In this document: positions 33,401 to 54,205 of the stretch, piece by piece
How positions within the stretch are numbered: position 1 is the first letter of the stretch
How the letters are laid out: every line of letters begins with the position of its first letter
From: Podarcis cretensis
Lineage: Eukaryota
Assembly (NCBI GenBank): GCA_951804945.1
Contig: OX638159.1
Location: 25,296,001 to 25,360,000 of the forward strand
Length of the DNA stretch: 64,000 nucleotides
Reading direction: 5' to 3'
The notes under the pieces: model-generated
What the model saw: only the letters and a program-made list of their open reading frames with translations
Databases searched by the model: none
What the model was told of the DNA's origin: nothing
Made by a program: the position numbers and the translations under genes

Positions 33401-33694
33401 GCTGGCTAAGGATTGACAGAGGGACACAGATGGTGCTGTGGGTTAAACCACAGAGCCTAGGACTTGGCGATCAGAAGGTCGGCAGTTCAAATCCCCACGA
33501 TGGGGTGAGCTCCTGTTGCTCGGTCCCTGCTCCTGCCAACCTAGCAGTTCAAAAGCACGTCAAAGTGCAAGTAGATAAATAGGTACCACTCCAGCGGGAA
33601 GGTAAACGGCGTTTCCGTGTGCTGCTCTGGTTCGCCAGAAGCTGCTTAGTCATGCTGGCCACATGACCCGGAAGCTGTATGCTGGCTCCCTCGG

Positions 33695-34292
33695 TGTGCT
33701 GGTCCCAGGGGGAGGTTACCGTGGGGCGAGGTCCAGGACCTGAGTCAAGGGTCGGCAGACAGTCCTCCAAGGGCGAAGCGGGGTCCAAGGCGAGGAGCAG
33801 GGCTAGGACAGGAACTCTCGAGGAACAGGACAGGGTGCTGGCCGAAACAGCTCTTCAACGACATTGCTCCCACAACCTGGGACCGGGCTGACTCGCCTTT
33901 ATCTTCTCTGAGGCCAGGGGCGGTCCCGGCCCCCAGGAGACCCGCCTCTCCTGGCCTTAAGGCGAGCATTCCTCCTGGGAGAAACCAGTTCCCTCCGCCT
34001 CTCTGACCTGAGCCTCTGCAGCTCAGGAGAGGCTGGAGGGTTAATGGACCCAGGGGGAGACTCACCTTCCCCTGACAAGGCTGGGAGAGGCACACCTGTA
34101 GGCACTGTGTCTTCAATCAACTCCGGAGCCAGAGAGGATTCACCTTGTGCCTGCTCCTGAGGATCCGGCACAGGTGCAGGTGCTTCATATCCAAGGCCCT
34201 CCCCCAGTTCAGCCGGCCCTGGAGGTGGGGACTCTTGTGCAGGCTGGGGTTCCTCCAGTTCAGCCTCTGAATCAGATTCCCAGGCCATCACA
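33695..34292 (-). mobile_element. Solo LTR (598 bp, probably Gypsy/Ty3-type)
   Basis: TGT...ACA termini with imperfect inverted ends (TGTGCTGGTC / TGTGATGGCC). 5-bp TSD CTCGG / CCCGG. TATA-like GATAAAAG on the minus strand at ~33896-33903. Confidence 0.88.
33899..34288 (-). CDS. Putative LTR(U3)-encoded 129-aa acidic/Pro-rich plus Arg-rich protein
   Basis: ATG at LTR nucleotide 5; the stop lies inside the TATA-like box. Residues 1-91 have 19 D/E and no K/R; residues 92-129 have 14 R and 1 K, including SPRRNARLKARR. Translation is not demonstrated. Confidence 0.45.
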   Translation of the reverse strand: MAWESDSEAELEEPQPAQESPPPGPAELGEGLGYEAPAPVPDPQEQAQGESSLAPELIEDTVPTGVPLPALSGEGESPPGSINPPASPELQRLRSERRRELVSPRRNARLKARRGGSPGGRDRPWPQRR

Positions 34293-37200
34293 CCCGGCCA
34301 ATAAAGCGAGATGAGCGCCGCAACCCCAGAGTCTGTCACGACTGGACCTAAGGGTTGGGGTCCCTTTACCCTTTACTTTTTAAGGATTGACAGAGGACTT
34401 ATTTACTTCCTTACCAGTCTTGCCTTCCCCTCAGTCCCCAGAGGAGACTTCATAAGTGCAGAACATACCACCTATACAAGAATTTGACAGAGCTCAGTGC
34501 ATGCAGTGCAGCTGTTGTGATTCTGTCCTGTACAGAAGACTTGGCATGAAACAATGGTATTATTTTCCTCCATGGGCTACTAGAGCCTCTTATTTTCTCC
34601 TCGATCACCATTTTGCAATGAGGCCCCCCTCCTCAGCTATCACTCAGTGGCAACAGCTTATAAATATACAGCATGCACCCTTGTGGGAGCCAATGAAAAG
34701 CTAATTAGAATTTTATGAAGAGATGTATTTATTTTAATATTTCATGTGAAATTTCGCTTGCTCTCTTCCCCCCACCACTGGCTCAGTAATAGAAGAAACG
34801 GAACAGAGCAGGTGGAAGAGAACTCCAAACTCCCCACTCTGATGCCATTTCAAGCAGATATTTTACAAACCCTTCAAAGCGCTATGCCATTGTTGATCAT
34901 AGACTTAATTAATGAATCAATAGGACCTCCGAATATTAATCCTTGATTCTGTGCATCTGTACAATTGATTAAAATAATGGATGGAATTGATTGTGGGCTT
35001 GGAGTATATAACTTGAAAATCAAAAGGCTTTATTTGCAAAGGATCAACCTGTGAATGTTGTTATTTTTAAACATAGCTAATTATGCTCATTATTTCAAGT
35101 CCAGGGTTGATGGCAAAAGTGCATGCAACTGTGATGTTTGCTGACATTTTGCATTATCCCCCAGCATTACTATATTTTGGAATTCATTATTAAGGAATTG
35201 AACAGCTTTTCACAGTGTGATTCCCTCCAGATGTTTTGGACTACAACTTCCATCAGTTCCAGCCAGCAATTGGGGACAGCTTGATTGCATTGTAGTACAT
35301 AATTTTTGCATGATTGTATAATGCGAAATCAATGTATTTTTTAAAAAAATATATTAGAATGGAATGAAATATTCATCACAAAATTTATATTTTTTCAGTG
35401 CAATGTATTTAATATTCCAATAATGTAACCAATATAGGAACTATTTTTAAGGCCTGCAAGGGTCATAGACATTTACTTGAAATAATTGTTCTGAAGCCAA
35501 TCCAGGCTTCTCTATTCATTTCAGTGGGACTCAAGCTACTGTTTCAGATCACATTATAAGGCTATCATGTATGTTACCCATCTTCCATACCAAAGATGTT
35601 TGGATTCGCATAATAAATGTTGATAATATCATAGCAATATAAATGCTAATGAGCCATATTTGGAATTATACTATACTTCCTTTAATCTCTACATGTAATA
35701 ATAAATATCAAAAGCACAGGATGAAATTCAATGGCACAGCTGGGCTTTACCTGGTGGGTGACACAAAGCATATTCAAAGGAAAGAATATTCCATTAGTTG
35801 TGCTTATTATATAGAAGATGCATGAGGAACCTCTGATGAGGTATTTTATTTATTTATTTATTGTAGTGGAGATTAAAATTCCCATGTGAGCATCATTGCA
35901 GTGTGACACATATGCTCCTGAGCTGCGAGAAATGGTATCTGAAAACGCAAAGCGAACTGAGGAAGAGAATACTGTAATACAATGTCCATCTTTTGAAAGG
36001 AGGCAAGACTGATCCATAGAATAATATGATACTTGGCTTGCAATATCTGAATAAGTGCAAATCCCAAAATATGGCTATGTTTTGGTTCACATGTTGCTTC
36101 ATAAAGTGTTAATTAGGTAAGTATGCCTTTAAATGTGAGCAGAATCGTATTTGTCCCCCATCCAGCAATGTGTCAGACACCAATTCTCAAGCATAGCACA
36201 TCATGACGGCCATCTTGGTTTCGGTACCCTAACCATGACACAGTCTCCCCAGAGAGGTCCAGTTGCCCCCCCCCCCGATGATTTTAGCTAATTAGTTCAA
36301 ACACTTTTCTTCCTCTGGGTCTCTGACAAGTTTAAAATTCATGCTGGTTAAATGGATTGGTTTTTTGCTCCGCCTGCATGCCTGCTTTTGGAAACCTTTT
36401 GTGTTGTATGTTTTAATATTGTAAGCTGCCTTGAGGCCTTTTTCAGAAACAAAAGGAAGGAATATAAATTATTGTATGACGAAATGAGCACTAACACGCT
36501 ACTGGGGGTAGAGGGATCCAAGAAATATATCTCTTGGATAGTGATCAATCTGTTGGCTGCTGGATGTTCCCTCCCCACTTGGGTGGATAATGAGTTTTAG
36601 TACTGTGAGTCAGGATAATGCACACATTTTTTTCCAGCACATGCCTTACGCGGTTTTGATCAGAGCCACAGAATCTTGCTTTAATTATATTATATCATTT
36701 GTTAGCACATACTGTATATGGGGATGACATCAGCATATATTTTGATGTACTAGAACTTGTTTTGGCATGAAATCAGATGAAATCATACGTATTACTGTTG
36801 TCTCTTTTAAATATGTTGGTGGGGGCAAAAGGCCCATCTCAGATTTCAAGATGGGCATTTTGCCCCCCACCATCACATTTAAAAGAGACAAATTAAAGCT
36901 TATGCCAAACCAAAGGATGCCAGTGGAGTTTATTTCAGCATGTTCATTTACTTACACACATTAGACATCATTAGTATGTTTCATCCATAAGTTATCCTTA
37001 ATTACCTGAAGAATATTCCATTTACTTTTGCAATTTATGGCTTCATAAGAAAATAACTTGTAGAAGAAACATTTCCCTAATTTGCATGGCCTAATTAGGA
37101 GAATATTAATTGCTTATTTTACAATCAGTAATTTGATTTTTGTTTTGGGCATGTGTATACGTAAAGACAAGACACTATTTCCAATTAGTTAAAATGAAAT

Positions 37201-53815: not shown

Positions 53816-53818
53816 AAA

Positions 53819-54205
53819 TGGCAGACCAACTTTTCTCTGACGAAGAGCTGGAAGAGGAAGAGCCCACCCCCTGTCCACAGTGTGTTCAGAAGCAGAGAGA
53901 CAGACAGAAGCTGAACAGCTAAGGGAGGAGTTACCCAGTTTTGAGATAACGACAAGAGAACCAGAAGGGAGGGGGCAGCTAGTTAAGACATCTCTTGAGA
54001 GCATGGGGGACCCCGCCCCCCACCATGGACTCGGAAGTCCAAACGTATCAGAGAGCAAAGGAGTCAGAGGGAGGGAGGAACTTCCCGTTGGCGCCCAAAA
54101 TGCTGCAGTAGTCAGAAGGAGGATTAGACTAGCCAACTGCCCTCCTTGCGGATTTGTGTATTTGTGCTCGCAACATGATACTGTAATAAAAGGACTAATT
54201 TTATA
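53819..54205 (+). mobile_element. LTR-like fragment with short acidic ORF remnant
   Basis: Starts TG immediately after the tRNA head, encodes MADQLFSDEELEEEEPTP.., AATAAA at ~54185. No terminal CA or TSD found. Confidence 0.45.

Follow-up and report, generated by a model that had tools for sequence, protein, structure and literature searches.

MMTV Sag and HIV Nef are separate proteins that overlap the long terminal repeat (LTR) and are made from their own spliced mRNAs, and in Ty1, Ty5 and MLV the C-terminal tail of integrase sets the choice of target. In plant chromoviruses of CRM group A, and in Beetle7 and Bingo1-4/7 of beet, gag-pol has been described to extend into the 3′ LTR (PMC3059260; PMC3605345), and the LTR of CRM group A encodes a putative integrase targeting domain, the CR motif (PMC3059260). 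Chromoviruses are already known from reptiles (PMC4131045). The vertebrate V-clade of Tf1/sushi contains Sushi-ichi, Amn-san, Amn-ichi and Amn-ni in the table of PMC6317226, a self-priming layout has been described for Tf1/sushi chromoviruses (bioRxiv 10.1101/2022.12.06.519325; PMC6317226), and the Sushi LTR profile begins TGTYANR (PMC3601003). Here, a reading frame in U3 of a solo LTR of the lizard Podarcis cretensis probably represents the C-terminal end of the Gag-Pol polyprotein of a chromovirus, a tail that purifying selection has maintained and that likely serves as a nuclear-import and chromatin-tethering arm of integrase. That Pol can read on into the 3′ LTR has precedent in the plant CRM chromoviruses, and the tail is present in public Podarcis annotations; the selected, HMGN-like integrase tail in squamate elements appears to be new, with no description of it found in the literature searched. 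As in CRM group A, the integrase tail is encoded in the LTR; in the CRM elements the CR motif replaces the chromodomain, whereas here an intact chromodomain precedes the purine tract and the LTR supplies a further, acidic-basic arm. Membership of CRM group A was considered and rejected, a canonical chromodomain being present upstream of the purine tract. Relative to the V-clade as described in the table cited, the present elements have a selected tail of 114-140 aa that follows the chromodomain and lies within U3. Literature searches, with Butler et al. 2001, supplements, Repbase and Dfam outside their scope, returned no such description and no retrotransposon integrase with a motif that is HMGN-like or directed at the acidic patch, and a phrase search, which is a weak one, returned no vertebrate 3′-LTR read-through.

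The window is the whole stretch of 64,000 nucleotides that was analysed, and the features at issue are the following.
33690..33694, no strand: low-side target-site duplication, ctcgg.
33695..34292, minus strand: solo LTR of a Tf1/sushi-type chromovirus (Ty3/gypsy), 598 bp, TG...CA, with full-length parents found in the genome.
33864..33873, minus strand: self-primer-like stretch GTGGGAGCAA, complementary to the primer-binding site of full-length copies; presumed start of R.
33896..33903, minus strand: TATA-like box GATAAAGG, overlapping the stop codon, its position kept across subfamilies; presumed promoter.
33899..34288, minus strand: U3 reading frame of 129 codons, probable remnant of the Gag-Pol (integrase) C-terminal tail, from read-through and selection.
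33947..34027, minus strand: basic segment PELQRLR..RRRE..RRSARL, aa 88-114, net dN/dS 0.19 (0.05-0.50); candidate nucleosome anchor or nuclear-import signal, from this value and the motif tally.
33959-33976, minus strand: RRNARL, the form of RRSARL in the window copy, within the basic segment.
34028..34198, minus strand: Pro/acidic linker, aa 31-87, differing in length among subfamilies, net dN/dS 0.46 and 0.51, with a 30-nt in-frame deletion in four subfamilies.
34199..34288, minus strand: start of the tail, aa 1-30, acidic and rich in Ser, net dN/dS 0.19 (0.09-0.37), its ATG overlapping the attachment end TGTGATG.
34293..34297, no strand: high-side target-site duplication, cccgg, with one mismatch.

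The preliminary description had already delimited this solo LTR by its target-site duplication, leaving the strand unstated. The duplication is 5 bp long with one mismatch, and the LTR lies on the minus strand, with TGTGATGG at its start and AGCACA at its end. A perfect 5-bp duplication flanks 37 of 54 solo copies of the same LTR family, for which a first look gave 2,610 candidates in the genome, 40 of them scored. The sequence on either side (33420-33689 and 34298-34350) belongs to a high-copy short repeat that hosts the insertion, recurs in the window and at many other loci, and may be the Sauria SINE.

Judged from domain order, self-priming layout and LTR ends, the window LTR belongs to a Tf1/sushi-type chromovirus. 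A search for the pattern of a purine tract before the LTR returned 40 matches, 33 of them with the junction RAGGGGGGATGG followed directly by TGTGATGG, and 0 in the reversed control. The LTR pairs of full-length natural copies are 91-99% identical. At one locus (L023) an LTR copy is followed by the primer-binding site and the start of gag, and a natural copy of 1544 codons (P0002) has, in Pfam order, capsid, protease, RT, RNase H, integrase, SH3 and chromodomain, then the tail, with the zinc knuckle and one protease model scoring below the cut-offs. PDB matches of the full-length copy are to Ty3 Gag-Pol, the PEG10 capsid and HP1-type chromodomains. Group I chromodomains are defined by three aromatic cage residues, Y, W and Y (PMC3605345), and all three are found in EYEVE...LIDWKGY of the present element. 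The TG...CA ends, the purine tract ahead of the 3′ LTR and the short target duplication are likewise those of a chromovirus. The primer-binding site of full-length copies is not tRNA-like. In all four full-length copies examined, a sequence located about 30 nt past the TATA-like box is the complement of 10 nt of this site; in one copy (L103) a matching change has occurred on both sides of this complement. An unconstrained fold of 341 nt of RNA did not recover the pairing (z 1.14). Since the complement of the primer-binding site lies about 30 nt after the TATA-like box, the open reading frame fills U3 and ends at the presumed promoter, and what had been presumed to be U3 is U3.

The frame had been proposed to encode a separate accessory protein of the MMTV Sag or Nef type, with in-frame continuation upstream of the 3′ LTR left as a point to be examined. 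Full-length elements have such a continuation, running from the chromodomain through the purine tract into U3. Of the 30 junction loci fetched, among which 25 are true junctions and most are broken somewhere, 4 have no stop in the frame of the LTR ATG throughout the 505 codons upstream, and frames of 1544, 1237, 1231, 694 and 584 codons stop about 355-365 nt within the 3′ LTR in the same frame. The protein across the junction reads chromodomain-KPGPDPRLRGGPGRGDGV-MAWDSDSEAE, and no stop lies between the chromodomain and the LTR. In-frame junctions are also found in the window's own subfamily (L114/L207, broken further on within the LTR) and in the oldest subfamily (L206). Consistently, public proteins of Podarcis muralis that are annotated as Gypsy integrase-like end in the same tail, with a value of 93% across it. 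The ATG itself overlaps the attachment sequence, and two full-length copies that still read through (L219, L221) have ATT or GTG in its place. The idea of a separate protein is not supported; the candidate gene of Sag or Nef type has no frame of its own apart from Pol. The likeness to Sag and Nef is confined to protein-coding sequence in U3 of the 3′ LTR, the difference being that the window's frame continues Pol. Two other parts of the preliminary description stand in altered form: the product would come from the 3′ LTR, into which Pol reads in the same frame, and the frame is left behind in solo LTRs, where the tail is kept as a remnant upstream of the LTR promoter. Because U3 is copied to both ends in reverse transcription, every LTR carries the tail, and in a solo LTR it would lie upstream of the LTR's own promoter and decay neutrally. 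What looked like an accessory gene is better read as an integrase extension that doubles as U3 and hence has been spread genome-wide in every solo LTR.

A protein from U3's own ATG on a spliced or read-in transcript, instead of or besides the Pol tail, is nevertheless conceivable, since 139 of 141 copies have the ATG at the LTR start and its positions -3 and +4 are occupied by G. A search of indexed sequencing runs listed no RNA run as containing the sequence, and RNA was followed in four shallow runs of a related species, of which 6-13% each was read. In these runs the internal region has a depth of about 0-6, mainly in the sense-expected orientation in two runs, and the LTR has about 10-40 on both strands, some ten times as much; such transcription of the LTR on both strands in a relative means that host read-in RNAs containing the frame exist. 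Many reads at the LTR start continue into flanking sequence of other kinds, the pattern to be expected if transcription reads in across solo LTRs. The LTR promoter itself cannot transcribe the frame, because the frame ends at the TATA-like box. The splice acceptor into U3 that had been envisaged was not seen in the same shallow runs, where the five joints listed all lie in R-U5 and none has GT..AG ends. Together with the unbroken continuity with Pol, the position of the ATG within the attachment end, its replacement in the two read-through copies, its absence from other families and the neutral appearance of single-copy variants in solo LTRs, these observations make an accessory protein very unlikely.

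The frame itself is as first reported: an ATG at LTR nucleotide 5 opens 129 codons, here on the minus strand, of which the first 91 residues contain 19 Asp/Glu and no Lys/Arg and the last 38 contain 14 Arg and 1 Lys. The stop TAA does lie within the TATA-like box, but the sequence there is AGA-TAA-AGG, with one A fewer than the AGA-TAA-AAGG given before. No Pfam family covers the 129-aa tail, a search for homologues that used only the tail as query and was limited to proteins 70-226 aa long gave 103 candidates with none at E ≤ 1, and the ESM Atlas returned no usable match for it. In dinucleotide shuffles of the sequence, any of the six frames is open for 129 codons in 3,126 of 20,000, so that openness alone means little, and a run of at least 91 codons free of Lys/Arg occurs in 20 of 20,000. 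The charge segregation rarely arises by chance, as 129 open codons with 91 Lys/Arg-free codons in the same frame occur in 0 of 20,000 shuffles. Among the 30 best DNA matches, which include the window copy and were chosen by likeness to it, 24 keep the 129-codon frame intact.

Selection on the frame was measured on 150 extracted LTR copies, 141 of them in nine groups, with 3′ LTRs near locus ends skipped; the 568-bp group includes at least two copies placed there wrongly. Pairs of natural copies served to calculate the net divergence between groups. Since similarity to query copies decided which copies entered the set, and one group came mostly from a protein search, retention counts lean to intact frames. 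Between subfamilies the net dN/dS is 0.31 (codon bootstrap 0.21-0.44; five groups, 112 copies), not near 1, while sense frames +1 and +2 of the same copies give 1.21 and 1.49. It is 0.45 (0.28-0.69) when the oldest group is left out; the subfamily pair W-B gives 0.65 (0.36-1.2), an interval that spans 1. In seven groups the values for R-U5 are 0.66-1.09 depending on the frame, and the value for the antisense frame whose third positions coincide with those of the tail is 0.50. Divergence between subfamilies at codon positions 1, 2 and 3 is 0.156, 0.138 and 0.249 (p=1e-4; 5e-4 without CpG sites). R-U5 has no third-position excess, and singleton rates are flat across codon positions. This excess between subfamilies with flat singletons indicates that selection acts in propagating lineages and not in solo LTRs. 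Variants in single copies have pN/pS 0.79 with 17 stops, and those in at least three copies have pN/pS 0.49 with 0 stops. The coding constraint proposed earlier is thus borne out by dN/dS below 1 in one sense frame and by the third-position excess after CpG masking. Of the indels, whose frame bias had been suggested as a check, a fixed 30-nt in-frame deletion in four groups agrees with a kept frame; the rest of the tally against the oldest subfamily is too noisy and was left unused, because its frameshifts, some of them paired (-1/+4), resemble alignment noise.

These data bear directly on whether the frame is a chance product of a GC-rich U3 in which constraint acts on promoter DNA. The frequency of equally long open frames among shuffles is what such an origin would predict, but the third-position excess is confined to one frame whether or not CpG sites are counted, no stop occurs among the variants that copies share in the tallied frame, the fixed deletion is in-frame and the frame is continuous with Pol. 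A chance origin is thereby refuted unless the alignment of the oldest subfamily is faulty, and net dN/dS stays at 0.45 without that subfamily; we regard it as extremely unlikely.

Constraint is uneven along the tail. Its acidic start, aa 1-30, and its basic segment, aa 88-114, are the most constrained parts, both at 0.19, and the tail as a whole is less constrained than the Pol core (net dN/dS 0.33-0.65 vs 0.04-0.23). The length of tail and linker varies among subfamilies from 114 to 140 aa. In a tally of 40 distinct junction sequences, identical ones merged, 6 without an anchor were dropped; among the 34 kept, the commonest spacing is 54 nt, which is in frame and occurs in 17; a further 1 keeps the frame despite a deletion, and the other 16 are shifted by 1-2 nt. 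The 16 out-of-frame junctions would imply a tailless integrase from such copies, and the tail may be dispensable at times. The shifts fall in a run of eight G about 25 nt upstream of the 3′ LTR, ahead of the purine tract (L031-L114, L206-L222). This is the sole run of that length in the coding region, and it has indels in 10 of 22 copies vs 0-2 at three six-base runs. The length shifts may arise from post-insertion slippage, assembly error or RT slippage, or may constitute a real on/off switch.

The basic segment contains the motif in which the preliminary description had recognised an HMGN-like sequence. The HMGN/Dsup nucleosome-binding motif is RRSARLSA, in which RRSAR is the part that has been modelled, for HMGN2, on the acidic patch of the nucleosome (PMC12487698). 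Of the 141 copies, 98 contain RRSAR, among them 18 of 18 in three groups from full-length elements with near-identical LTRs (D650, E576, F618), and is absent from the window copy, whose RRNARL is rare, being shared by 2 of the 37 copies in its subfamily. Apart from a three-copy group, where it is 1 of 3, RRSARL outnumbers every other form in all eight subfamilies that have at least two copies, and the HMGN-like motif thus prevails in every subfamily of more than three copies. Most copies without RRSAR, often old solo copies, have His or Cys at the last Arg, a pattern consistent with CpG decay. The tail resembles the HMGN motif, as modelled in the source cited, in that its most constrained basic segment is commonly RRSARL in a low-complexity, probably disordered context; it differs in continuing RRSARLKA, not RRSARLSA, in being carried by a retrotransposon integrase and in having no other HMGN likeness (no Pfam match), and its binding is predicted only.

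Translation of the full-length RNA would yield an integrase followed by chromodomain, acidic linker and basic segment, and the tail would stay on integrase after protease cleavage. The arginines of RRSAR may then dock on the H2A-H2B acidic patch as in HMGN2, with the chromodomain reading histone marks alongside, and the basic segment may double as an import signal. By analogy with HMGN2, such docking in concert with the chromodomain, the model preferred here, is put forward tentatively, as possible rather than probable; that the tail acts mainly as a nuclear localisation signal is only slightly less so. A complex prediction of H2A and H2B, taken from the genome, with a 34-residue tail peptide scored 0.02 and bears neither way. 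A selected RRSARL behind a chromodomain offers a route to asking whether a vertebrate retrotransposon reads the acidic patch like HMGN.

The tail could instead be translated with Pol as a loosely constrained, disordered extension that adds charge, solubility or generic import, its likeness to HMGN being coincidental. A dN/dS well above that of the Pol core, a linker of variable length and the loss of frame in about half of the junctions are all in keeping with this, and squamate relatives keep the charge pattern and not the motif, many fish relatives having short run-on tails. Moreover, RRSAR is five residues long and within reach of chance in tails rich in Arg and Ser. Against this stand the basic segment, which at 0.19 is among the most constrained parts, and the prevalence of RRSARL in nearly all multi-copy subfamilies, though its last Arg has often decayed to His or Cys. 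We therefore consider a loose extension improbable, and a selected tail of integrase remains the preferred reading.

Tails of this kind are not confined to the window's family. In at least two other chromovirus families of the genome (L208/L209; L213/L224), Pol reads about 300 nt into the 3′ LTR and ends in an acidic-then-basic tail that has no ATG at the LTR start and no RRSARL; their chromodomains are 34-56% identical. In the single pair L208 (G000:C2:4306800-4314800) and L209, the 101-codon tail within the LTR has dN/dS 0.21 vs 1.1 and 1.5 in the other frames. Acidic FxGF motifs lie just past the chromodomain in L208, L209, L213, L224, L210 and L216 (EEEEFIGF; DEEGEFEGF; SSEDEESSFRGF), and none was found in the window's family; FxGF with acidic residues is given as the consensus for partners of the LEDGF integrase-binding domain (bioRxiv 10.1101/624023). 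These observations raise the speculative and rather doubtful idea that squamate chromoviruses use U3 as a slot for host-mimicking integrase tethers, with an HMGN-type anchor in the present family, LEDGF-type FxGF and basic tails in its sisters and an on/off switch in the run of eight G. In predicted proteins of the amphisbaenian Rhineura floridana and the viper Vipera latastei, the chromodomain likewise leads into a tail that is acidic and then basic but lacks RRSARL; because predicted proteins were what was compared, the position of these tails in an LTR is presumed. Several fish matches have short run-on tails only. One of the other chromovirus families in the genome is very young, with LTR pairs that are 100% identical and dozens of frames of 1333-1334 codons.

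Charged open reading frames in reptile solo LTRs can accordingly be Pol remnants, and gene predictors splice such remnants into false genes. A case is P0030 (UniRef A0A670IYC7, Podarcis muralis), a gene model that fuses gag to a U3 tail from a 5′ LTR; it is probably an artefact of gene prediction that the ATG in U3 set off. Within the window, 53818-54197 on the plus strand belongs to a different repeat family of greater age, with 226 candidates at 81-86% identity, and holds a decayed acidic-then-basic frame that starts MADQL..DGELE. Elsewhere, the LTR at L018:2100-2566 sits in an older, oppositely oriented LTR of the same family, and L023 is an internally deleted element consisting of a 5′ LTR, the start of gag and the last 38 nt of the LTR.
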